Shown here: piece by piece, positions 22,341 to 59,535 of the stretch | How positions within the stretch are numbered: the first letter of the stretch is position 1 | Layout: every line of letters starts with the position of its first letter | NCBI GenBank assembly: GCA_014874185.1 | Contig: JACWAF010000033.1 | Coordinates: 21,234 to 85,233, forward strand | Source: Nitrospirota bacterium | GTDB lineage: Bacteria > Nitrospirota > Thermodesulfovibrionia > Thermodesulfovibrionales > JdFR-88 | Direction: 5' to 3' | Length of the DNA stretch: 64,000 nt | Made by a program: the position numbers and the translations under genes | Notes under the pieces: model-generated | The model's database searches: none | What the model was told of the DNA's origin: nothing | Seen by the model: only the letters and a program-made list of their open reading frames with translations

Positions 22341-23828
22341 GTGGACATCCGCGCCCAGGTATCGATGGTCTTTCATCTGGACAAGTGCATAGGCTGCCAC
22401 ACATGCAGCATCGCCTGCAAGAACATCTGGACCCCCAGGCGCGGCACCGAGTACATGTGGTGGAACAACGTTGAGACGAAGCCCGGCACCGGCTATCCCA
22501 CCCTGTGGGAAGACCAGGGTAAATACAGGGGCGGCTGGGCCGTCCACAAGGGAAAACCCAAACTGAAATTGCAGGGCAGGGCGGGCGCGCTGGCCAACAT
22601 ATTCTTCAACCCGTATCTGCCCACGATGGGCGACTATTACGAGCCCTGGACATATCACTATGAAGACCTCGCCAATGCCCCGGAGGGCGACGACCAGCCG
22701 GTCGCGACCCCGGTCTCGGAGATAACCGGCCGGGACATGGAAATAGAGGCCGGGCCTAACTGGGATGATGATCTGAGCGGCTCTTACATTTATGCCGAAA
22801 GCGACCCGAACAGGCTGGCGCTTACGCCGGAGGAGAGAGAGGTCTCCTTCAGGATGGAGAGGCTCGCCTTCTTCTACCTGCCCAGGATCTGCAATCACTG
22901 CCTGAACCCCGGCTGCCTTGCCGCGTGTCCGGCGGGCGCCATTTACAAACGCGGGATGGACGGCATAGTGCTTGTAAGCCAGGACAAGTGCCGGGCGTGG
23001 AGGATGTGCATATCCGGCTGTCCGTATAAAAAAGTCTATTACAACTGGGCGACGGGAAAATCCGAGAAGTGCATATTGTGCTATCCAAGGCAGGAAACGC
23101 AGCAGCCGCCCGCGTGTTTCCACGCGTGCGTGGGGCGCATCCGTTATCTGGGGCTGGTGCTTTATGATGCCAAGATGATAGAGGCGGCCGCCTCCGTTCC
23201 GGACCATGAGCTTGTGAGCGCGCACAGGGACATTATTAAAGACCCGTTTGACCCGGAGGTCATCGCCAGGGCGAAAGAGAATGGCATATCCGATCACATG
23301 ATCAAAGCCGCGCAGTCGTCGCCCGTATACAAATTTGTGAAAGAGTGGCGGATCGCGCTCCCCCTTCATCCAGAATTCAGGACACTGCCGATGCTCTTTT
23401 ATGTCCCGCCGCTTCTTCCGGTTACAGCCTCGATGAAAGACGGCATCTACGAGAGCACGGGTGAATTTTTCGGCTCACTTGAGAATTTGAGGGTCCCTCT
23501 CAGGTATTTCGCGTCGCTTCTGGCCGGGGGGAACGAAGCCGAAGTGGAGCGCTCTTTCAAAAAGCTCTACGCGGTGCGGGTCTACAGGCGCGCGCAGACG
23601 GCGGGCGATATAAGCCAGAAGGAGGTCAGCCGGGTGCTCGAAGCGGCGGACACGTCTCCGGAGGAAGTCGAAGCCATATACAAAATGAGCTCGCTTGCCT
23701 CATATGAGGAGCGGTTCGTCATGCCGCCGTTCATGCGCGAGGCGGCCATAGAGGCCGAGGAAGAGCCGTCCAGGAGAAAAACGGATGCAGGGGCCGGGTT
23801 CATAAGCAAACTGAGGAGGGGTATCTGA
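22341..23828 (+). CDS. narH: Respiratory nitrate reductase beta subunit (Fe-S)
   Basis: GTG start 7 nt after AGGAG. MDIRAQVSMVFHLDKCIGCHTCSIACKNIW..WWNNVETKPG closely parallels E. coli NarH. Further Cys clusters CNHCLNPGCLAACP and CRAWRMCISGCPY. Confidence 0.95.
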   Translation: MDIRAQVSMVFHLDKCIGCHTCSIACKNIWTPRRGTEYMWWNNVETKPGTGYPTLWEDQGKYRGGWAVHKGKPKLKLQGRAGALANIFFNPYLPTMGDYYEPWTYHYEDLANAPEGDDQPVATPVSEITGRDMEIEAGPNWDDDLSGSYIYAESDPNRLALTPEEREVSFRMERLAFFYLPRICNHCLNPGCLAACPAGAIYKRGMDGIVLVSQDKCRAWRMCISGCPYKKVYYNWATGKSEKCILCYPRQETQQPPACFHACVGRIRYLGLVLYDAKMIEAAASVPDHELVSAHRDIIKDPFDPEVIARAKENGISDHMIKAAQSSPVYKFVKEWRIALPLHPEFRTLPMLFYVPPLLPVTASMKDGIYESTGEFFGSLENLRVPLRYFASLLAGGNEAEVERSFKKLYAVRVYRRAQTAGDISQKEVSRVLEAADTSPEEVEAIYKMSSLASYEERFVMPPFMREAAIEAEEEPSRRKTDAGAGFISKLRRGI

Positions 23829-23832
23829 AAAT

Positions 23833-24363
23833 ATGGAAAACTGCCCTGCGGGGCTTTATGCCCTTTTTGCGGACCTGATGGATTATCCCACCCCCGCCTT
23901 GAAGGAAAAGGCGGGCGAGTGCGCTTCCGCCTTGCCGGCGGTGAACGGAAAGGCCCTGGGCCCGTTTTCCAGGTTCAGGGATTTTCTGGAAGGGGCCGAA
24001 CTCTCCCTGGTCGAGGAACTTTACACAAGGACATTCGATCTGCAGCCCGTGTGTCCCCCATACGCCGGGCAATACCTCTTCGGTCAGGACATGAGGCGGG
24101 GCATGTTCATGGCGAAATTAAGGAAGCTCTACCGCGAGCGCAATTTCCCGGAGAACGGCGAACTTCCGGACCACCTTGGCGTGATGCTCAGGTTCGTGTC
24201 GAAAAGCCCCTCCATCGAGGAGGCCAGGGAGATTGTGGAATTCTGTCTTGTGCCCTCTTTTCAGAAAATGGTCTCGAAGCTTGCGGAAGGGGAAAACCCT
24301 TACGGGTTTCTGGTCAACGCAATCCTCCTGGCCCTGAACGGGAAAGAGGAGAAAGCGGCGTAG
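23833..24363 (+). CDS. narJ: Nitrate reductase molybdenum cofactor assembly chaperone (NarJ/TorD family)
   Basis: 176 aa. Position between narH and narI. YTRTFDL and ELPDHLGVMLRF motifs typical of NarJ. Confidence 0.8.
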   Translation: MENCPAGLYALFADLMDYPTPALKEKAGECASALPAVNGKALGPFSRFRDFLEGAELSLVEELYTRTFDLQPVCPPYAGQYLFGQDMRRGMFMAKLRKLYRERNFPENGELPDHLGVMLRFVSKSPSIEEAREIVEFCLVPSFQKMVSKLAEGENPYGFLVNAILLALNGKEEKAA

Positions 24364-24367
24364 AGAT

Positions 24368-25072
24368 ATGTCAGATACGGTCTATTTCATAGCCTTCCCC
24401 TACCTTGCCCTCTTTGCCGCATTGGGAGGCGGCCTTTACAGGTACTACAAGCACCGGTTTACGTATTCGAGCGTCTCCTCCCAGCTACTGGAGAACAGGA
24501 TGCTTTTCTGGGGTTCCGTGCCCTGGCATTACGGGATAATCCTGATACTTCTTGCCCATATCGTTCCCCTGGTGGCAACGCCCTTCTGGATATGGCTCCA
24601 TGCGGATCCCACCAGGATACTGCTCCTGGAGGTCATCGGCTCGGCCATGGGGTTCCTGGCCATCCTGGGCATGGCGGCCCTGATCCTGAGGCGCCTCTTC
24701 AGCTTGAAGCCGCGCCATGCCACATCCATCATGGACTGGGTGCTATTGATCGACCTGGCATTTCAGATAGCGCTCGGGTTTTACATCACCCTGTATTACA
24801 GGTGGGGATCAAGCTGGTATCTGTTCACGGCCACTCCGTGGATACGCTCGCTTGCCGCCCTGAACCCCAGGGTAGATTTCGTCAATGAGCTGCCGCCGGT
24901 TGTCCAGCTCCATTTCGTGAACGGGTTCCTGGTTATCGCCCTGATACCGTTTACAAGGCTGGGCCACTTGTTTACCGTTCCGGTCACTTATCTGTGGAGG
25001 CCGTTCCAGGTATTTATATGGAGCAGGAAGAAAAACGGCTATAATGAAACGGGAGGCATATATGGGAAATGA
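24368..25072 (+). CDS. narI: Respiratory nitrate reductase gamma subunit (diheme b, membrane)
   Basis: 234 aa with five TM helices. Conserved His in WHYGIILILLAHIV and later helices. The gene order narGHJI fits. Confidence 0.85.
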   Translation: MSDTVYFIAFPYLALFAALGGGLYRYYKHRFTYSSVSSQLLENRMLFWGSVPWHYGIILILLAHIVPLVATPFWIWLHADPTRILLLEVIGSAMGFLAILGMAALILRRLFSLKPRHATSIMDWVLLIDLAFQIALGFYITLYYRWGSSWYLFTATPWIRSLAALNPRVDFVNELPPVVQLHFVNGFLVIALIPFTRLGHLFTVPVTYLWRPFQVFIWSRKKNGYNETGGIYGK

Positions 25073-36125: not shown

Positions 36126-36515
36126 ATGCCGGGCAGGGCCAGGATACTGGTCATGGATGATGAAGAGATAGTAAGGCTTACGCTGGCCAGCATGCTTGAG
36201 GGGCTTGGCTATGAGGCGGAACTGGCCGAAGACGGTTTGCAGGCGGTCGGCCTGTATAAAAGGGCACTGGAAGAGAAAAGGCCGTTTGACGCGGTCATTA
36301 TGGACCTTACCGTAAAAGGGGGGATGGGTGGCAGGGACGCCATAAAAAGTCTTCTGGAACTGGACCCGCAGGTTAAGGCGATAATCTCCAGCGGCTATTC
36401 CGAGGACGCCATGACAGCCGGCTACAGGTCACTGGGCTTCAGAAAATGCATTTTGAAGCCCTACAGCATTGAAGAGCTGAGGGCCGGGCTGGTTGAGCTT
36501 TTAAACCAGGATTAA
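36126..36515 (+). CDS. Stand-alone response regulator receiver domain (CheY-like)
   Basis: ILVMDDEE, phospho-acceptor context DAVIMDLTV, SSGYS, KP. No output domain and no adjacent histidine kinase. Its TAA stop shares the palindrome TTAA with the convergent helicase stop. Confidence 0.85.
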   Translation: MPGRARILVMDDEEIVRLTLASMLEGLGYEAELAEDGLQAVGLYKRALEEKRPFDAVIMDLTVKGGMGGRDAIKSLLELDPQVKAIISSGYSEDAMTAGYRSLGFRKCILKPYSIEELRAGLVELLNQD

Positions 36516-38764
36516 CCCTTTCGGGAAATCCTTTCTCCGGCCTCAAGCAGCATCCCGGCCAGCCGCATTGCCCCTGCCTTGTGCAAGGGCCTGTTCGCGT
36601 TGCCGCACTGGGGGTCCTGCACGCAGGATGGGCAGCCCTCTTCACACGGGCACTCGGTCATGATGGCAAGCGATGCGCCGAGCCATTTCGAAAGCAACTC
36701 ATAGGGCTTCCATGTAAGCCCTATGCCGCCCTCCACGCCGTCATAGAAGAAGATGGCGCTCCCCCCGAAAGACGGATAGAAAGGATAGCTTATCCCGCCT
36801 ATGTCCATCTTGTCGCACATGGAAAAGAGCGGCATGGCCGATATGGCGGCGTGCTCGAAGGCATGCAATGAGCCGCCAAGGTCTGTCTGCTCAAGCTCCT
36901 TTACGATTCCATCCGCCAGCCTCATCCAGACCCCTTTCGTGCTGAAGACGTATTCGGGCAGTTCCAAGGGGTGCACGGAATATCTTTTGCCGTCATGGAG
37001 GCCCCTCTTCTCAAACCCGGTTACCCTGAAGCGAAGTCTGATGCTGCCTTTATGCAGGCTGAAGCCCTTAAAGTTTTCATGCGCGTTTTCATCGATTATC
37101 TCAGCGTTCTGCTCGGACAGGGCCCTTGTAAAATATTCAGCCCCGGTCTCCTCGCAAAAGACCTTCCTGTCCGCATAATCGATCTCCCGCACCCTGTACT
37201 GCCTTCCCCTGTGCAGGTAGATGGCGCCTGGGAAGGCCTCCTTTAAAAGCCTCAGCCCGCCGGTCTCCCCTATCTTCGCGCCCTTTGCGATTATTGAACA
37301 GGCCTCGCCTATGGCCCTTATCCCGGCGTCCCTGTGGGGTGTCCTTCCGGTGGAGAACCAGGTGCCGGGAATCCTCCCCGGGTTCAGTTTCCCTTCTCTT
37401 GCAAGCTCTTCAATGACCGGGTATATTATTTTCCGATCGTAGACCGGGTCGTCCTCTTTAAGGAAGACCTCTTTTGCGGCGCACGGGAGGTGCGCCTTCA
37501 GGATGGCCTCGTTGTCCTGGTCTGTTACGGCCGACTCGCTTGGTTTTCCGAAGAACTCTTCCGGGTGCCTGATGATGTACTGGTCCAGTGCATCGTTCAG
37601 CCCTATGAGCGCAACGATGCTCTCCTGCCCCTGCCTGCCCACCCGCCCGGCCCTCTGCCATGTGCTCGAGACCGAGCCCGGATAGCCTATCAATATGCAG
37701 ACGTCCAGGCCGCCGATGTCAACGCCCAGTTCCAGGGCCGAGGTGGAGACCACGCCAAGGAGTTCTCCATTGAATAGAGCCTGCTCTATCTCCCGCCTTT
37801 CAGAGGGCAGGAACCCCGCCCGATAGGGGCTTACAAGCCCGGCAAGATGCGGGGACTTGGCCAGCGCCCAGGAATAGACAAGCTCGGTTATCTTCCTGGA
37901 TTTGGTAAAAACGATCGTCCTCAGTCCCCGGTCAAGGCAATAGGTGAACAGGTTTACCCCCATCGTGTAAGGGCTTTCGTACTGCGGACTTATGAACAGG
38001 AAATGCTTTCCTCCGGAAGGGGCCCCGCTCCGCTCGACCAGATCGAAGGGAAGCCCTGTCAGGTTTCGGGCCAACTCCGCTGGGTTGGCGATAGTGGCGG
38101 AGCATGTTATGAACTGAGGATTCGCGCCCCATCTCAGGGCTATGCGCCTCAGCCTTCGTATGACCTGTGCCACGTTTGAGCCGAATACCCCCCTGTAGGC
38201 GTGGATCTCATCGAGCACTACAAATTTCAGGTTTCTGAAGAACGCCTCCCACTTTGGGTGGAACGCGTTTATAGCCAGGTGCAGCATGTCAGGGTTGGTG
38301 AATATCACATCCGGCAGATTTTCCCTGATCTTCTTTCTTCTGTACGGGGTGGTGTCGCCGTCGTAGACGGCCCCGCCGGAAAGCCCGAGCGGGCCGGCCA
38401 GCGAATTCAAAGCGCCAAGCTGGTCCTGCTCCAGCCCCTTCATGGGCGAGATATAGAGGGCCTTCGAGCCGGGCGCTTTCAGAAGCATCTCCAGTATGGG
38501 GATATTGTAAATTAGGCTTTTGCCGCTTGCCGTGGGGGTCATCACGACCAGATTGCGGCCCGCCCTTATCAGCCGCAGGGCCTCCGCCTGATGAGAGAAG
38601 AGGCGCTCAATCCCGTTTTCCCTCAGCAGCCTTGAAAGCTCCGGGACGAGTTCGATTTCGGCCCATTCGGCCGGTTTTGGCGGAATGTATTTTTCAAAGG
38701 AAAGCTCGCCCTCCCGAAGGACCCCGCCTTTCAGCCCGGCGAGAAGTTCTTCTGTTTTTTTCAC
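36512..38764 (-). CDS. DEAD/DEAH-box helicase with C-terminal DUF1998 zinc domain (MrfA/YprA family)
   Basis: Walker A TPTASGKS, DEIH box VVLDEIHAYRG, QRAGRVGRQG motif VI, C-terminal C.CEEGCPSCV..PQCGN. The start is set at GTG 38764, a GTGA overlap with the upstream subunit IV stop. The longer ORF to 38977 would overlap that gene by 217 nt. Confidence 0.85.
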   Translation of the reverse strand: MKKTEELLAGLKGGVLREGELSFEKYIPPKPAEWAEIELVPELSRLLRENGIERLFSHQAEALRLIRAGRNLVVMTPTASGKSLIYNIPILEMLLKAPGSKALYISPMKGLEQDQLGALNSLAGPLGLSGGAVYDGDTTPYRRKKIRENLPDVIFTNPDMLHLAINAFHPKWEAFFRNLKFVVLDEIHAYRGVFGSNVAQVIRRLRRIALRWGANPQFITCSATIANPAELARNLTGLPFDLVERSGAPSGGKHFLFISPQYESPYTMGVNLFTYCLDRGLRTIVFTKSRKITELVYSWALAKSPHLAGLVSPYRAGFLPSERREIEQALFNGELLGVVSTSALELGVDIGGLDVCILIGYPGSVSSTWQRAGRVGRQGQESIVALIGLNDALDQYIIRHPEEFFGKPSESAVTDQDNEAILKAHLPCAAKEVFLKEDDPVYDRKIIYPVIEELAREGKLNPGRIPGTWFSTGRTPHRDAGIRAIGEACSIIAKGAKIGETGGLRLLKEAFPGAIYLHRGRQYRVREIDYADRKVFCEETGAEYFTRALSEQNAEIIDENAHENFKGFSLHKGSIRLRFRVTGFEKRGLHDGKRYSVHPLELPEYVFSTKGVWMRLADGIVKELEQTDLGGSLHAFEHAAISAMPLFSMCDKMDIGGISYPFYPSFGGSAIFFYDGVEGGIGLTWKPYELLSKWLGASLAIMTECPCEEGCPSCVQDPQCGNANRPLHKAGAMRLAGMLLEAGERISRKG

Positions 38765-39135
38765 AGGTTGAAGACGGAGAGTATGCTGAGGGTTACCGCG
38801 CTTGCAAGCAGAAAGAGGCCGGCCACCACCGCGATCTTCCTTCCCCTTCCATCCTTGTCCATATACGGTATGAAGACCAGCAGCGAGATGAACACAAGGG
38901 GCATTATAACCGTTCCGAAGAAGGTCCATCGGCCGGGAAAATACCTCAGGAGCTGATAGAGCCAGAGGAAGTACCATTCCGGCTTCGGCGTGAAGCGCGA
39001 GACGAAATCTATCGCCTGCCCGGCCCGCGGCGGAAAAAGGAGCGCCACGGCCAGAAGCAGCTCGAAGGCTATAAAGGCGCTTGCAGCCACATAGGGCAGG
39101 TATTCCGGGTACAGCCGCATTTTCTTTTTTGCCAT
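38761..39135 (-). CDS. Cytochrome b6f subunit IV-like protein (cytochrome b C-terminal domain), bc-complex copy 2
   Basis: 124 aa with three TM helices and a canonical Qo motif, TPKPEWYFLWLYQ. Confidence 0.85.
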   Translation of the reverse strand: MAKKKMRLYPEYLPYVAASAFIAFELLLAVALLFPPRAGQAIDFVSRFTPKPEWYFLWLYQLLRYFPGRWTFFGTVIMPLVFISLLVFIPYMDKDGRGRKIAVVAGLFLLASAVTLSILSVFNL

Positions 39136-39136
39136 A

Positions 39137-39787
39137 TCAGAGCCCCCCTGAAATCCCCTGCCTCTTCACCATATGAAAGTGCGCCCATAGCACCATGAAC
39201 ATGAAAACGGGTATCCAGAGGACGTGCAGGCTGTAAAACCTTATGAGCGTTGCACCCTGCACCTCGGCACCGCCACGGAGAAGCATGACTACAAACGGCC
39301 CGATGCCGGGCACTGTGCCGCCCATCGATGTGCCAACCACCGTGGCCCAGTATGCCTTCTGGTCCCACGGGAGCAGATATCCGGTAAATCCGGAGGCAAG
39401 CACCAGGACAAGGGTAAGCGAGCCGGCTATCCAGTTAAGCTCTCTTGGCGGCCTGTACGCCTTGTAAACGAAAACCCGGACAGTATGGAAGACGATGAAG
39501 ATTATCAGGATGGTTGCGGACCATTTATGCAGGCTTCTTATCAGCCAGCCCCCCCAGACGGCGTTGTTTATCTCAAGCACGCTCTTGTAGGCGTCCGTGG
39601 CGGAGGGCACATAATAGACCGAAAGCATCAGCCCGGTGACAACGGAGGTCATGAAGCAGACAAAAGCCATCCCGCCGAAGCAGTAGGAAAAGTTCAGCTT
39701 TACGGGGACCGACCTGGAGAGGAACCCCTTGTGAGGCTCCCTCAGCCTGAAGAGCCTGTCCAGTACGCGTACGATGAGGTCTATCAA
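39137..39787 (-). CDS. Cytochrome b6-like protein (cytochrome b N-terminal domain), bc-complex copy 2
   Basis: 216 aa. H-x13-H (HKWSATILIIFIVFH) and H-x14-H (HVLWIPVFMFMVLWAH). NFSYCFGG matches the FYCLGG Cys that binds heme ci in b6-type cytochromes. Confidence 0.9.
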   Translation of the reverse strand: MIDLIVRVLDRLFRLREPHKGFLSRSVPVKLNFSYCFGGMAFVCFMTSVVTGLMLSVYYVPSATDAYKSVLEINNAVWGGWLIRSLHKWSATILIIFIVFHTVRVFVYKAYRPPRELNWIAGSLTLVLVLASGFTGYLLPWDQKAYWATVVGTSMGGTVPGIGPFVVMLLRGGAEVQGATLIRFYSLHVLWIPVFMFMVLWAHFHMVKRQGISGGL

Positions 39788-40248
39788 GTCCTCACCCCGA
39801 TGTAGAAATCCCCGTTCACTATCTTATAGGGCAGGCGTGTAAGGGGCCTGGGGGCGGGGCCGCCGATTACCTTGCCCGTTATATCGAAAGCGCTCCCGTG
39901 GCAGGGGCAGTCGAATTCGTTCTTGAAGGGGTTCCAGCGCACCTGGCAGCCAAGATGGGTGCATGTGGGCGAGAGGGCGATAATCTTCCCGTTCGCGTTT
40001 GAGAGGTAGACCCTGAAGCTCTGGTCACGGAAGGTGAAATCCACTTTCTTGACCCCTCTGCGCGGGAGGGAGTACTCATCGAATACCCTGACGAACTCTA
40101 ACGCGCCTTCTTTTCCCGTGCTGAAAGGATAGAAATAAGGCAGGCCGGCAAGCCCTCCGAGTCCCAAAACCGCCAGAGAGGCCTTTACGAGAGCGGAAAG
40201 GAAATCCCTTCTGCCTTCATGGCCTTTATTCCTCTGTGTCCTCAACAT
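39784..40248 (-). CDS. Rieske [2Fe-2S] protein with Tat-like signal, bc-complex copy 2
   Basis: GRRDFLSALVKASLAV, CTHLGC...CPCHGS. 4-nt overlap with the b6-like gene. The start overlaps the ihfB 3' end by 23 nt. Confidence 0.9.
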   Translation of the reverse strand: MLRTQRNKGHEGRRDFLSALVKASLAVLGLGGLAGLPYFYPFSTGKEGALEFVRVFDEYSLPRRGVKKVDFTFRDQSFRVYLSNANGKIIALSPTCTHLGCQVRWNPFKNEFDCPCHGSAFDITGKVIGGPAPRPLTRLPYKIVNGDFYIGVRT

Positions 40249-47215: not shown

Positions 47216-48241
47216 CTATATCTCCCTTCCCACTGCCTGGGCCACGGGTTTCAGTTCCTTCATCATCTGTTTGAAGGCGTCGGGCCTGAGGGACTGCTCG
47301 CCGTCCGAGAGGGCCTCTTCGGGATGCGTGTGCACTTCGATAACCAGCCCGTCCGCCCCGGCCGCGACGGCCGCCTTCGCCATCGGGGAGACGTGCTCCA
47401 TGATCCCCACGCCATGGCTTGGGTCTACCACGACGGGCAGGTGAGTAAGCTTTTTAAGGACGGGCACGGCGCTCAAATCCAGGGTGTTTCTGGTTGCCGT
47501 CTCGAATGTCCTTATGCCGCGCTCGCAGAGGATCACGTTCATGTTGCCTCGGCTCATGATGTACTCCGCGGACATGAGCCATTCCTTTATGGTGGCCGAG
47601 AGGCCGCGCTTCAGGAGGATGGGCTTTTTGCTCTCGCCCACCACCAGAAGGAGCCTGAAATTCTGCATGTTCCTTGCGCCAATCTGTATCACATCGGAGT
47701 ACTTTTCGATCACGTCAATATCGCGCGGGTCCATTATCTCGGTCACTATCGGAAGCCCCGATTTCTCGCGCGCGAGGGCAAGGTATTTCAAACCCTCTTC
47801 CCCAAGGCCCTGGAAGGAGTAGGGCGAAGTCCTTGGCTTGAAGGCGCCGCCCCGCAGGAAGCTTGCGCCGGCCTTTTTTACTTCCTTCGCTATCTCCACC
47901 ATCATCGACTGGTTCTCTACGGAGCAGGGCCCGGCTATAACGCAAATCTTTTTGCCGCCTATGACCTGCTTGCCCACCTTTACCGTGGTGGCGGTCTTCT
48001 TGAACTCGCGGCTTGCCAGCCTGTACGGTTTCAGGATGCGCATCACGGTCTCCACGCCCGCGGCCGCGCGGATGGAGTTTTCCACCTCTTCGTTCACCTT
48101 CGATGTGTTCCCTATGACCCCGATGATGGTCCTCTCGGTCCCCTTTGATACGGTCGCTTCCAAGCCTAAGCTTTCAAGCCTCTTTATGATGTGCTTCTTC
48201 TCTTTCTCGCTTGCACGGGGTTTTAAAACGATGATGTCCAA
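47216..48241 (-). CDS. aroF: 3-deoxy-7-phosphoheptulonate (DAHP) synthase, type I-beta with N-terminal ferredoxin-like regulatory domain
   Basis: 341 aa. [21 protein letters not shown] and DPSH motifs. An ~70-aa N-terminal domain as in the Thermotoga-type enzyme. Confidence 0.85.
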
Positions 48242-48284
48242 TTCAGCCTCCAGAATTCATTTATTGATGTTTCGAAATAGGATA

Positions 48285-48455
48285 TACATAATTATACGTA
48301 AATCCCTCCTAACCTCCCTTTTCCAAAGGGAGGGATTACCCCTCTTTGGAACGGGGTCCCCGAAAAGTGGCAGACTTTTTGGGGTGCAGGTTGAGGGGTG
48401 AGGGGAGATTTCCAGTTAAAATGTCTATTCAATTATGAGACCCTTAATATCTAAA
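48285..48455. repeat. Structured intergenic repeat, family B copy 2 (longer; overlaps the last ~10 codons and stop of hisC)
   Basis: Shares the AATCCCTCCTAACCTCCCT core (48301-48319), the two hairpins, GGGGAGATTT and the AAATGTCTATTCAATTATGAGACCCTTAATA tail with 1265-1392, and carries an extra ~40-bp insert. The hisC stop (48425-48427) lies inside the tail. Confidence 0.6.
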
Positions 48456-51337: not shown

Positions 51338-52639
51338 TTATTTCCCCTCGGTCGAGACGGTTATGGTCTTCTCCGCCTTGTTGAAGAGGAAGGCGTTATC
51401 GTCCTTCACGCCGAATGGCTCGTACCATAGCTCTACGAGGACGTTGATCTTGTCATTAAGTATTTTCCGCACCGGTTTGCCGTCAATGGCCACATCCCGG
51501 CAGGGGAATTTGAACGTGAACTTCTCGTCGACATCTCGAAGCGGCGGAAGGCTTGTGTCCCTCAGGATACCGCTCTTTTCGTATGGTCCTCTGCCCATCC
51601 GGTCTCCGCGGCCCAACTGCAGCGGGATCGGCATGTAGATCCTGGAATCCTTGAAAACTTCCTGCCCGTCAGGTGTCTTAGCGGTGACTTCCAGCACCAG
51701 CCTGTTGGGGGTAGGTCAACCATCGGGTATGCCGTGGCCGGCCTTGTTTCTCAGATGGACCCGCACCTCGCCCTGGGGGACGATAACAGTGCCGTCACGC
51801 CAGATATCGGCGTCCGCGTGTACGTCGAAGTCCACGGCCATCTTTTGCATCTCCGGCGAGCGGTAGCTCTGCATATTGTGCCCAAGGCCGCTCTTTTCCA
51901 TATGGCATTCCTGGCAGGTCTCGTTGCCCCCCTCGGCCCTGTAGACCATGTTATAGCTGGCGTAAAGGGTGGCGCACTGGGAGGGGTTGTCGAACTCGAA
52001 ATTGGGCCCTGTGCCGTGGCATTGCCCGCAGAGGACGGATTCCTTCATTATGAAACTCTTTTTAAGCTTCGTGAAGGTCGGGTGCGGGTGCTTGCCATCC
52101 CTGGTGCCGTAGACGGTGTCCTTCTGGGGATAGCCGTCCGCCCATTTGTGGATTATGGCGTTCCGGTTATGGCAGATAAGGCAATTGATGTTTACCTTTT
52201 CAAGCTGCTCTCTGGCATGCGCCGCCACCTTCTCGTCTGGCGAGGATAGGTCGAAGACGTTTTTCATGATCTCCCTGGCCACGGAGTCCTCCGCGTCTTT
52301 CAATTGCGGCAGGTGGCACTTGGCGCAGACCATCAGGTGCACCACCTTGACGTCCTCGGGCTTCTTCACGCCGGAGTAGGGCCATTCCATGAACCCGTTA
52401 ATGCTGGTGGTCTTAAGCGTGGCCGCCGTACGGCCTGTGCCGAAGATGCTCCTTGAGTGGATGGATTTCTGCCAGTCCTCGTAGATCCTGGCATGGCATT
52501 CCTTGCACGAGCTGGAATCGTACATGGCCGCAAGCTCGTCAATCGTCTTCGCCTTCTTTGTCTCGGCCCCTGACTGGCCAGGCAGGGATAAGACGGCCAG
52601 GGCGAGGGCGAGACAGAACACTGCTCCCGCTGATCGCAT
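51338..52639 (-). CDS. Secreted pentaheme c-type cytochrome whose frame continues through an in-frame TGA (51716-51718)
   Basis: Signal peptide, then five CxxCH motifs (CKECH, CAKCH, CLICH, CGQCH, CQECH). The 307-aa ORF ends ...NKAGHGIPDG-TGA. The same frame continues PTPNRLVLEVTAKTPDGQEVF... for 125 more codons to TAA at 51338. The ORF track lists the tail as a separate GTG-started 119-aa ORF. Confidence 0.7.
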
Positions 52640-56865: not shown

Positions 56866-58169
56866 TTGATTCCTCCTTGCTGAAATTTCCTGACCTTCAA
56901 TTTGAGCCCCTGCATGGACTCCACTATGATTTTTTCTTGTTTTGGGATTTTTTCATCCGAAAAGGCCGACCATATCTCCCCGTGGACAAGCACCATCCCC
57001 CCTTCGGGGCCGATATCCGAGCTTGCGGTCCCCTCTTCCCCTTTAAGCCCCTCCTTGCCGGTCAGGGGTTTTCGCCTGTAAGCCTTCAAGGCAAGCCGTA
57101 TGGTAAACGCAAAGAAAAGGGCCGTGATCAGCACCGCCGGAATCACGAACGAGAGGGAAAGCCTTATGAACGGCCCACCCATATCAAAGAGCATCAGCGA
57201 ACCTATTAGCATCGAGATTATGCCTCCCAGCGTAAGCACCCCGTGCGAGGTTATTTTTATCTCCAGGACGAAAAGTATTATGGCGAGGATTATCAGGAGA
57301 AGTCCCGCGTAATTTACCGGAAGGGTCTGGAAGGAGTAGAATGCCAGAATCAGCGAGATCGCCCCAATCACCCCGGGGAATATCGCTCCCGGGCTGACAA
57401 ACTCGAAGAAGAGCCCGTAAAAGCCGAGGAGCATTAAAATATAGGCCACGTTGGGGTCGCTTATCACCGAGAGTATCTTCAGCCTGAGGCCCATTTCGCG
57501 GGTGACGATTTTTGCCCCTTTGGTATCAAGCACCCTGGGGCCGGAGGCGGTCTCAACCTTTCGTCCGTCCATTTCTTTTACGAGGTCGCCCGTATTGTTG
57601 GCTATCAGGTCAATAACGTGCAGGTTCAGGGCTTCGGTATCGGTTATCGAGACGCTGTTGCGCACGGCGGCCTCGGCCCATTCCGCGTTCCTGCCGCGCT
57701 TTTCGGCAAGGCTCTTTATGAAAGCCACGGCATCGTTGGTGACCTTTTCAGTCATCGTCCTGCTCATCTTCTGCCCCATTGAGACCGGGTGGGCCGCGCC
57801 GATGTTGGTCTCCGGGGCCATGGCCGCCACCTGGGCCGCCATGGTGATGAACACCCCAGCCGAGGCCGCCCTGGCCCCGCTGGGGGACACATAGACCACA
57901 ACAGGCACATCGCTGGCCAGCATGGATTTGATTATCGCCCGCATCGAGGTGTCAAGGCCGCCCGGGGTGTCCAGCCTTATGATAAGCGCTTCGTCGTTTT
58001 CCTTGTTTGCCCTCTGGATATTTTTATCCATGAACTCGGCGGCAACGGGATTTATAATCCCTTCATATTTTATCGCTACGATATCCCTGGCGGTTGAGGC
58101 CCTTACGGGCAGGAATGCAATGAGCAGGATAAGGAAAACAAGCCCCGCGGGTAGAAATTTCCGCACCAT
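56862..58169 (-). CDS. NfeD-family membrane-bound ClpP-class serine protease
   Basis: Signal/[16 protein letters not shown], four central TM helices and a C-terminal OB-like domain. 4-nt overlap with the SPFH gene, the classic pair. Confidence 0.85.
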
Positions 58170-58221
58170 GGACTATTCTATATCAAAGAGGGGCTTAAGT
58201 GGTGAAAAGGAAAGGCGAAGT

Positions 58222-58389
58222 TCAGGTAATCTCTTTCTTTTCCGCTTCCGCCCCGCTCTTCGGAGGCTCTGGTTTGCAGACCGGACAATATGGCTCGCCC
58301 AAATCCAGAGGGCAAACATGCCCTCATTCCGGGCAGCAGACGCACTTTGAAATCGGGTTGTCGCATACGGGACAAATTTGTTCTTCCAT
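58222..58389 (-). CDS. Candidate small Cys-rich protein (55 codons) containing an in-frame TGA in a C-x-x-U context; hypothetical
   Basis: The minus strand reads ATG(58389) MEEQICPVCDNPISKCVCCPE-TGA(58326-58324)-GHVCPLDLGEPYCPVCKPEPPKSGAEAEKKEIT-TGA(58224-58222). The two CPVC knuckles lie on opposite sides of the TGA. TTGAAT-N18-TATAAT ends 6 nt before the ATG. Too short for the ORF track. Confidence 0.3.
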
Positions 58390-58500
58390 CTGAAAATTAT
58401 AATTCAGCTGGCCGGGTTTATTCAATAAAGGGCCGGGTTAAGATTACAAATGCATCCCGAAGTGGTAAAATAAATTTTATATGACCTATCAGGAGTTGCT

Positions 58501-59535
58501 ATGAAAGAGGCAATGCTGTATGAAAGGCTTGAAGGAGGCAGGGTACACTGTTATCTTTGCGCCCACAATTGCCGGTTCGGCCCCGGAAAACGGGGCATCT
58601 GCGCGGTGCGGGAGAATATCGACGGCGGTCTTTATACCCTTGTTTACGGGAAGGTGGCGGCCGCCAACATAGACCCGATAGAGAAAAAGCCCCTTTTCCA
58701 TTTTCTTCCTGGTTCGAAGAGTTTTTCCATAGCCACGGCGGGGTGCAACCTGAGATGCATGCACTGCCAGAACTACGAGATATCACAGCTCCCGCGCGAA
58801 AGGAGGGACTTGGAGATACCCGGCACGGATATGTCCCCGGAAGAGGTGGTCTCGCTTGCGGCCTCGGCTGGCTGCGGGAGCATTTCCTATACGTATACCG
58901 AGCCGACTATTTTCATGGAATTCGCCTATGACTGCATGAGGCTCGCCCGGGAGAGGGGGATGAAGAACGTTTTTGTGAGCAACGGTTTCATGAGCCCGGA
59001 GGCGGCAAATTTCATCGCCCCCTATCTTGACGCCAACAACATAGATATGAAGGGGGACGACGATTTTTACAGAAAGGTCTGCGGGGCGAGGCTTGGGCCG
59101 GTAAAAGAGACAATAAAGACCATGCATGAAAAAGGGGTCTGGGTGGAGGTTACCACATTGGTAATACCGGACTACAACGATTCGGACCAGGTGCTCTCTG
59201 ATATCGCCCGTTTTGTAAAGGGTGTAAGCCCGGATATTCCCTGGCACGTGTCGCAGTTCTATCCCGCCTACAAGCTTCTGGATAAGCCCCGCACCCCGAT
59301 AGACACCCTGAAAAGGGCCAGGCAGACAGGGCTGGATGCCGGGCTCAAGTTCGTCTACATGGGAAATGTCCCCGGAGAAGGGGAAGACACCGTTTGCCCC
59401 TCCTGCGGGGCCCCGGTGATAGAGAGGATAGGGTTCACGATAATGAAAAACCGGCTTGAAAAGGGGAAATGCCCGTCCTGCGGGCGGAGCCTGCCCGGCA
59501 TCTGGGCAGTGGAGCAAGCCGGGGTTGCAGGATAA
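58501..59535 (+). CDS. AmmeMemoRadiSam-system type radical SAM enzyme (PflA-like activase family)
   Basis: AGGAG then ATG. N-terminal C.LC.H.C......GIC, radical SAM CNLRCMHCQN, C-terminal CPSCG...CPSCG. Confidence 0.85.
   Translation: MKEAMLYERLEGGRVHCYLCAHNCRFGPGKRGICAVRENIDGGLYTLVYGKVAAANIDPIEKKPLFHFLPGSKSFSIATAGCNLRCMHCQNYEISQLPRERRDLEIPGTDMSPEEVVSLAASAGCGSISYTYTEPTIFMEFAYDCMRLARERGMKNVFVSNGFMSPEAANFIAPYLDANNIDMKGDDDFYRKVCGARLGPVKETIKTMHEKGVWVEVTTLVIPDYNDSDQVLSDIARFVKGVSPDIPWHVSQFYPAYKLLDKPRTPIDTLKRARQTGLDAGLKFVYMGNVPGEGEDTVCPSCGAPVIERIGFTIMKNRLEKGKCPSCGRSLPGIWAVEQAGVAG

Follow-up and report, generated by a model that had tools for sequence, protein, structure and literature searches.

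The question raised by this locus is whether a TGA codon lying within a small, cysteine-rich open reading frame (ORF) is a stop or is read as selenocysteine (Sec, U). The ORF is found on the minus strand of a 64,000-nucleotide stretch of DNA from a Nitrospirota bacterium (GenBank assembly GCA_014874185.1, contig JACWAF010000033.1), which was analyzed in its full length and is referred to here as the window. A first-pass annotation, made from the letters of the window alone, had proposed that the frame continues through the TGA. Our comparative analyses indicate that the locus is very probably an intact and independently transcribed gene for a 55-residue selenoprotein of an uncatalogued family, and that its internal TGA almost certainly encodes selenocysteine. 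The features of the gene are as follows:

58222..58389, minus strand: coding sequence of the predicted small selenoprotein, 55 sense codons including the putative Sec-UGA at codon 22, with the terminal TGA at 58224-58222
58324..58326, minus strand: TGA predicted to encode selenocysteine U22, within C19-P-E-U22-G-H24
58276..58374, minus strand: conserved core domain from C6 to C38, with the candidate ligands C6, C9, C16, C18, C19, U22, H24, C26, C35 and C38
58222..58275, minus strand: C-terminal tail KPEPPKSGAEAEKKEIT, which is charged and varies between members in both length and sequence, followed by the stop codon

The start codon is the ATG at 58389-58387, and the internal TGA at 58326-58324 (codon 22) is in frame with it. 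Direct checking of the sequence returned exactly the ORF, the frame across the TGA and the translation that had been annotated. Read from 58389 to 58222 on the minus strand, it is MEEQICPVCDNPISKCVCCPE-[TGA]-GHVCPLDLGEPYCPVCKPEPP… and, in its complete form, MEEQICPVCDNPISKCVCCPE, a stop symbol, GHVCPLDLGEPYCPVCKPEPPKSGAEAEKKEIT and a final stop symbol. The CPVC knuckles described as flanking the TGA are residues 6-9 and 35-38, one on each side of it, and the CxxU arrangement is equally in place (C19-P-E-[TGA]). In some members of the family the C-terminal tail contains an amphipathic K/E-rich stretch. Gene callers miss the genes of this family, which are truncated, skipped or given with Trp at the Sec codon. 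A 65-amino acid (aa) ORF of another frame, set aside as noise in the first-pass annotation, is just that, as its frame holds stop codons in 37 of 42 family members.

The readthrough product, with U replaced by C, was used as the query of a homolog search, which gave three full-length proteins, all of them with Cys at the aligned position (…CVCCPECGHVCPL…). When one genome of each species was scanned, 51 loci were recovered, with few exceptions from metagenome-assembled genomes (MAGs) of Nitrospirota/Thermodesulfovibrionales. Together with six contigs of the Cys-form matches and the window itself, these made up a set of 58 loci in which, at the DNA level, the codon aligned to the TGA was TGA in 45, TGC or TGT in 11 and GAC in two. 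Downstream of it, both the frame and the peptide GHVC[LP]LDLGE[PL]YCPVCKP persist across the family loci. A search with the family profile added about 60 called proteins, many of them from Thermodesulfobacteriota MAGs, with Cys at position 22 except for two with 'W'. Database homologs with Cys at this position number about 70 (including P0001-P0004), and among 121 proteins position 22 was C in 72, U in 42, 'W' in three, D in two, A in one and R in one. The Sec/Cys pairs that had been named beforehand as the standard test are thus abundant at both levels.

The same arrangement was sought in metagenomes with a degenerate DNA pattern for C-x-C-C-P-E-TGA-G-H. At least 120 contigs matched, of which 103 encode an intact family core with the TGA, and the matches include an additional sub-lineage that would bear Sec. 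Overall, more than 140 independent sequences share the arrangement, which is far beyond chance. An exhaustive profile search of 1.84 billion representatives produced only 41 matches, about 27 of them small stand-alone proteins. To judge from the loci recovered, the family is nearly universal in Thermodesulfovibrionales and common in anaerobic Nitrospirota.

Several individual members are worth describing. Locus L005 and loci L054/L026 (P0003) encode near-identical proteins of 57 aa that differ by few substitutions and by TGA or TGT at position 22; the Cys form P0003 retains the hairpin described below, and the exchange between Sec and Cys is thus very recent. In a sub-lineage marked by the motif 'RDWG' (L048:6001-6114, L050:6001-6114 and P0088), position 22 is Asp or Ala and the other nine ligands are kept. 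Two 'RDWG' contigs are binned as Bathyarchaeia, which could be due to horizontal transfer or to mis-binning. Loci L049:3308-3457 and L051:6001-6057 are frameshifted beyond the Sec codon and represent either pseudogenes or assembly errors. In P0080 (195 aa) the family domain is N-terminal to a TadA-like (CMP/dCMP-type) deaminase, either as a real fusion or as a gene-calling artefact; as a single isolated case, it was dropped as a clue to function.

Selection on the two halves of the ORF was analyzed in 42 distinct TGA members. The nonsynonymous-to-synonymous ratio (pN/pS) was 0.236 in the 16 codons upstream of the TGA (pS 0.852) and 0.080 in the 18 codons downstream of it (pS 0.625). After the TGA, entropy was 1.03 bits at third codon positions and 0.14-0.19 bits at first and second positions. 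The coding frame was free of stops in all 42 members, while the two alternative frames were interrupted in 12 and 37 of them. This pattern indicates that the peptide and the frame across the UGA are under purifying selection. Both halves are conserved as protein, as the comparison suggested in the first-pass annotation was meant to establish, and the random drift past the TGA that would have spoken against its proposal is clearly not seen, because purifying selection is stronger after the TGA than before it.

The consensus of the bacterial selenocysteine insertion sequence (bSECIS) is a stem of 4-16 bp capped by a loop of 3-9 nt, which has a G among its first two nucleotides and is separated from the UGA by 16-37 nt, with a minimum free energy (MFE) of -7.5 kcal/mol or lower (PMC13188914 Fig. 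2). The family contains a short hairpin, rich in guanine plus cytosine, at +13..+32, with a (U)GGA loop and typically of the form CCUCC-UGGAUYU-GGGGG. A hairpin at this position, with a spacing of 16-18 nt and in agreement with criteria i-iii of the bSECIS model, was found in 39 of 40 distinct genome-derived TGA sequences and in 85 of 86 new distinct metagenome sequences (median stem free energy, dG, -9.0); the local MFE was -7.5 kcal/mol or lower in 35 of the former and 85 of the latter. All 40 genome-derived TGA members were more stable than resamples with synonymous codons (mean z -1.76; MFE -9.3 vs. about -5.2 kcal/mol). Codon choice within the stem is biased, with CTG for Leu28 in 40/42 and GGG for Gly31 in 32/42 members, the background usage of these codons being 23 and 21%, respectively. 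Members with a Cys or Asp codon (n = 14) showed a median local MFE of -4.85, in contrast to -8.3 in the TGA set (Mann-Whitney p 5.5e-4, for sequences that are not independent). The prediction that recoding is directed by the +13..+32 hairpin, inside the coding region and in a SelB-type manner, is strongly supported by these comparisons; its (U)GGA loop would begin 16-18 nt past the UGA, as in the bacterial SECIS elements that bind SelB. The window contains two structures of this kind:

58293..58317, minus strand: SECIS-like hairpin in its window version, 8-bp stem GUUUGCCC/GGGCGAGC and 9-nt loop UCUGGAUUU
58281..58302, minus strand: alternative SECIS candidate of this window only, 8-bp stem, loop GCCAUA, 29 nt past the UGA, dG -7.2

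The former (58317-58293) is homologous by position to the family hairpin, with its register shifted and GGC as the Gly31 codon, so that in the window copy the recoding hairpin would be displaced by one register. Its energy is -11.5 to -12.3 kcal/mol, a stability above that of 99.3% of the synonymous resamples. The alternative hairpin agrees with the loop-G and spacing rules and is present in the MFE structure of the window; inspection of the alignment showed that it is unconserved in other members. The two RNA structures drawn in the first-pass annotation both exist in the window, but neither of them is the conserved element. Its 10-bp stem (CUCUGG-A-UUUG…CAAACCAGAG) had 64.8% of cells paired over 40 members and a covariation below the shuffled mean, and was rejected. 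The hairpin that includes the UGA has a conserved 5-bp core, in which the third position of Gly23 disrupts one pair in 9/40 members; its 7-bp form is specific to the window and competes with the SECIS-like helix. It is unsuitable as a SECIS because its loop lies 5 nt past the UGA, which is too close.

With respect to the use of Sec by the organism, the window holds another gene of interest:

51338..52639, minus strand: predicted ExtKL selenoprotein gene, with an internal TGA at 51716-51718

The first-pass annotation had counted a second frame-preserving TGA in the window, and it proved to be real. The readthrough product of this gene matches the model NF040886 'multiheme c-type cytochrome (seleno)protein ExtKL' from end to end (E 8e-173, 575 bits, cutoff 250), and gene callers break it into pieces of 307 and 125 aa. 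The RNA directly 3' of its UGA is of unremarkable stability (z +1.15). The presence of ExtKL in the same window provides independent evidence of the Sec trait. In addition, selC embedded in or overlapping selB has been reported in Nitrospirae (PMC13188914), from which it follows that the phylum possesses Sec machinery. Three other regions of the window were considered as selenoprotein genes and rejected. At 36512-39823 on the minus strand, a candidate Sec-containing formate dehydrogenase, there is a cytochrome b-like ORF with a normal TGA stop followed by a DEAD/DEAH-box helicase; the TGA is in frame with the helicase and the two ordinary genes mimic a read-through. At 47216-48415 there is a DAHP synthase, and at 22341-24389 a NarH-like Fe-S protein, each with an ordinary stop.

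The expression signals of the small gene are as follows:

58396..58425, minus strand: predicted sigma-70-type promoter TTGAAT-N18-TATAAT, 10 of 12 consensus positions, -10 box ending 6 nt 5' of the ATG

This promoter and its leaderless geometry had been recognized from the window alone and were upheld by the comparison. No GGAGG-like Shine-Dalgarno sequence lies between the -10 box of the window and the ATG. When the upstream regions of the family were aligned on the ATG, TATAAT, often as TGnTATAAT, ended 5-9 nt 5' of the start in most loci. A -10 box (at most one mismatch, with its end 4-10 nt 5' of the ATG) was detected in 33 of 43 distinct family upstream regions, 28 of them perfect, vs. 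44 of 426 other genes of the same loci, 16 of them perfect. It was also present in 46 of 85 metagenome-derived upstream regions. With the box in such a position, transcription is expected to start at the A of the AUG or beside it, giving a leaderless mRNA that needs no Shine-Dalgarno sequence. Under the proposed mechanism, a TATAAT box located 5-9 nt before the AUG would drive transcription that begins at, or a few nt from, this codon, and comparison across the family supports a leaderless mRNA as predicted from promoter rules. The adjacent nfeD (ATG at 58169, minus strand) has a -10-like TAGAAT within 58170-58190, ending 5 nt 5' of its ATG, and no obvious Shine-Dalgarno sequence. Given that about 10% of the genes in related loci have a box of this kind, leaderless mRNAs may be common in the lineage.

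As regards the protein, ten ligand positions are each at least 95% conserved in the 121 proteins (C6, C9, C16, C18, C19, U/C22, H24, C26, C35 and C38). Among them, only position 22 shows repeated substitution, by non-ligands (Ala, Arg) or by Asp, while the other nine are kept. The best match of a profile search against PDB was the C-terminal zinc ribbon of archaeal RNA polymerase subunit B (RpoB; 4qiw_B, E 0.004), in which C19-x2-U22-G-H…Y-C35-P-V-C38 was aligned. Rubredoxin (E 0.06), rubrerythrin and RING fingers gave weaker matches below threshold, and so did Pfam Zn_ribbon_3 (E 1.2, below the family threshold). A structure model of the protein contained no helices and no strands and had no structural match; no thioredoxin fold was found, there being no Pfam match and a core of about 35 residues. 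We infer that this core may be a metal-organized mini-domain with zinc-ribbon/RING-like knuckles, in which eight of the ten conserved Cys/His positions would hold two metal ions. The most conserved segment, C19-x-x-U22, would be the reactive site, where a selenenylsulfide could be made and broken in thiol/selenol exchange or in the sensing of oxidants. A scaffold of two metals presenting C19-x-x-U22 is favored because the ten ligands exceed the eight needed and because only position 22 is repeatedly replaced. The proposed function, that of a two-metal zinc-ribbon/RING-like mini-domain presenting a redox C-x-x-U pair, is derived from the sequences only, and the 'thiol-oxidoreductase-like' role suggested at first is likewise a prediction.

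It must be noted that a number of observations stand against parts of this interpretation. The genes selA, selB and selD and a tRNA-Sec were not found in the window, whose ORFs were partly annotated, or in the fetched loci; ARAGORN detected a tRNA-Sec neither in the window nor in 51 loci, and Rfam at gathering thresholds gave zero matches in the window. With respect to the Sec machinery, which the first-pass annotation had asked to be checked, the ExtKL gene serves as a proxy in favor of the Sec trait, the sel genes and tRNA-Sec themselves being missing from these sequences. With regard to the hairpin, two Cys forms (L180 and L183) fold well, and bSECIS criteria i-iii are also passed by the Cys controls, with weak stems. 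The window hairpin has a spacing of 14 nt and the invariant GG at loop positions 4-5, which place it outside the consensus model. Compensatory double changes were not found in the helix, where variation is confined to one-sided U:G, C:G and U:A changes and register slippage; the covariation score was equaled by 34-40 of 500 shuffles, and pair tallies over 122 sequences concur. Covariation is not a required feature of a SECIS helix, and that of the family is nearly invariant. The -10 box is missing in 10/43 genome-derived and 39/85 metagenome-derived upstream regions, some of which have a normal Shine-Dalgarno sequence, and three loci carry GGAGG in its place. The alignment with RpoB makes U22 a metal ligand and not a free residue. 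Lastly, the gene neighborhood is not conserved and provides no functional clue.

One alternative takes the TGA as a genuine stop, as a lesion or as an error of sequencing; the locus would then be a pseudogene or encode a 21-residue peptide only, and the downstream frame would be a relic or an ORF with an initiation of its own. The TGA could arise from TGC by a single-base change, the ORF is uncalled by gene callers, and the two frameshifted loci mentioned above (L049 and L051) attest to decay or error within the family. Nevertheless, TGA occupies the same codon in 45/58 loci and in at least 100 metagenome contigs, the peptide after it has a pN/pS of 0.08, no conserved start codon exists past it, and a hairpin is conserved at SECIS distance. 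In light of these comparisons such a reading is effectively refuted, and we consider it extremely improbable. Only slightly more credible, and still very unlikely, is that a standard amino acid is inserted at the UGA, be it Trp, Gly or Cys through near-cognate suppression, or that the code is reassigned. Some pipelines do annotate Trp at the Sec position, the public gene calls of P0005 (L058:3001-3183) and P0006 showing CCPEWGH, and Sec machinery genes were not found in the sequence available. In P0005, the one of the three 'W' cases examined at the DNA level, the underlying codon is TGA, and hence the pipeline had applied a translation table with TGA as Trp; the call in P0006 probably has the same cause. 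Against a standard amino acid, the small gene itself terminates at TGA, which makes TGA an ordinary stop in the organism and argues against a global reassignment; homologs have Cys at position 22, a hallmark of Sec that would not be expected for Trp or Gly; ExtKL, with a TGA in the same window, belongs to a family curated by NCBI as a selenoprotein; and the hairpin agrees with bSECIS geometry.

Two further alternatives accept the decoding of Sec and concern the fate of the product. It could be the precursor of a ribosomally synthesized and post-translationally modified peptide (RiPP), like the selenobacteriocin SbtA, matured by the divergent radical S-adenosylmethionine (SAM) enzyme at 58501-59535. 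The peptide is short, Cys-rich and Sec-containing, and the radical-SAM gene is 111 nt away on the opposite strand. That neighbor is an enzyme of the AmmeMemoRadiSam system (TIGR04337, E 1.8e-104) and not a peptide maturase; it is absent among the conserved neighbors in other genomes, a leader/core architecture is lacking and TIGR04081 is unmatched, all of which makes a RiPP highly implausible. The main rival, possible if somewhat unlikely, is that U22 is a direct metal ligand and that C19, U22, C35 and C38 form an M(Cys)3(Sec) center of the rubredoxin/zinc-ribbon type. Its function would in that case be that of a small electron carrier whose potential is tuned by selenium, or that of a sensor or chaperone of soft metals and metalloids. 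In the alignment with the archaeal RpoB zinc ribbon, the first knuckle has U22 as its second ligand; knuckles of rubredoxin and rubrerythrin were also matched, and U22 is replaced in two members by Asp, which is able to ligate metals. Knuckles of the CPxCG type are classic four-ligand sites, a generality that also favors such a center. There is precedent in families for which Sec in a metal site is predicted, namely the FmdB zinc ribbon (UxxU), the zinc-ribbon protein DG, CopZ-like 2Fe-2S proteins and MbdU (PMC13188914 Table 1). In contrast, the ten ligand positions leave a spare pair over the eight of two tetrahedral sites, some members in which the other nine are kept have Ala or Arg in place of U22, and the PDB matches are weak (best E 0.004), with no structural match and a metal identity unreadable from sequence. 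If true, it would place an encoded Sec ligand in a mononuclear Fe/Zn knuckle of a stand-alone protein of 5-7 kDa translated from a leaderless mRNA, possibly a selenium-tuned electron carrier or a factor handling soft metals or selenium in anaerobic Nitrospirota.

Whichever role U22 has, the predicted family is a previously uncatalogued one, to be added to roughly 120 bacterial selenoprotein families. A 2026 inventory lists 119 prokaryotic families (PMC13188914 Table 1), and no counterpart was found among them, among the nine deep-Sep families or in BSepDB (reported families only). Pfam and NCBIfam gave no family match for the small selenoprotein. When 44 members were searched with hmmscan at E up to 10, the catalogued models NF041197, NF041239, TIGR02605 and TIGR04081 gave no match, and NF049953 was the sole model to appear, in one member with an E of 7.2. 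In the literature searched, no paper was found that joins CPxCG with selenocysteine and no description was found of a leaderless bacterial selenoprotein mRNA.

The locus behaves like other bacterial selenoprotein genes, except for covariation and, in the window copy, the strict SECIS geometry. The family shares with the general class of bacterial selenoprotein genes that have an intragenic SECIS (e.g., E. coli fdhF) an in-frame UGA with Cys homologs, a CxxU motif, an anaerobic host with other selenoproteins and a hairpin directly after the UGA, whose apical loop contains a G and is 16-18 nt away. It differs from the listed selenoprotein families (PMC13188914) in that it has no NCBIfam or Pfam model, its mRNA is apparently leaderless and its core has only about 35 residues. 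FmdB (TIGR02605, UxxU) and protein DG (NF049953, GUxG) are similar as small stand-alone proteins with CxxC-type knuckles in which Sec is predicted from sequence to replace a knuckle Cys; the family of the window has the motif CPEUGH, ten conserved ligands instead of four and no significant match to their hidden Markov models. NF041197 'dual CXXC motif small (seleno)protein' and NF041239 'CC/Se motif family (seleno)protein' resemble it by name and description, as small Cys-rich proteins with CxxC or CC. NF041239 has CxxU, while the Sec motif of NF041197 is RxU/GxU, and neither model matches the family. In the archaeal RpoB ribbon (4qiw_B), rubredoxin and rubrerythrin, C-x2-C-G-H-x10-12-Y-C-P-V-C aligns with residues 19-38, but this similarity is marginal (E 0.004-0.65) and covers half of the domain, and those proteins have Cys, never Sec. 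The spacing C-x2-C…C-x-C…H-x-C…C-x2-C, which provides two metals with eight ligands, is reminiscent of RING/PHD domains (e.g., TRIM5, MUL1, the PHD of WSTF and zf-C3HC4_3), with weak matches below threshold; the family differs in being bacterial and stand-alone, with two extra conserved positions (C18 or C19, and U22). Thioredoxin-fold selenoproteins with CxxU (SelW-like/Rdx and AhpD-like, among others) share the motif, the Cys homologs and a presumed redox role, whereas the protein of the window is too short and has no thioredoxin fold.

The predicted protein would be among the smallest selenoproteins and, with metal-binding knuckles in place of a thioredoxin fold, a compact system in which to study selenium beside or inside a Cys-rich metal site. 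Sec/Cys pairs that differ by a few residues, such as L005 and P0003, are natural controls. The apparently leaderless transcript, whose 5' end is about 80 nt away from the putative SECIS, could serve as a minimal template for studies of Sec recoding. New bacterial selenoprotein families still turn up regularly. The Thermodesulfovibrionales are environmentally widespread anaerobes in which the family is nearly universal yet invisible to annotation, and its alignment could seed an annotation model for correct gene calls.

The neighborhood of the small gene was also compared between loci. Downstream of it in the window are genes for a ClpP-class membrane protease (NfeD-like) and a protein of the SPFH/stomatin type, and on its other side there is the gene considered above in connection with RiPPs:

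58501-59535, plus strand: predicted AmmeMemoRadiSam-system radical-SAM enzyme, divergent from the small gene and 111 nt away

The downstream neighbor was YajQ-like in 12 loci, RarA-like in 10 and NfeD/SPFH in eight, including the window. The position upstream of nfeD given in the first-pass annotation is correct for the window, but the linkage is lineage-specific and is not a trait of the family. As for the AmmeMemoRadiSam gene, it was not found beside the small gene in other genomes, and by this comparison its adjacency is coincidental. Cys-form genes of the Thermodesulfobacteriota type (L179, L181, L182 and L183) are convergent to a gene with OB-fold and HD domains in four of the five loci examined, and in two of these a uracil-DNA glycosylase gene lies between them, an arrangement that looks like synteny and not like an operon.

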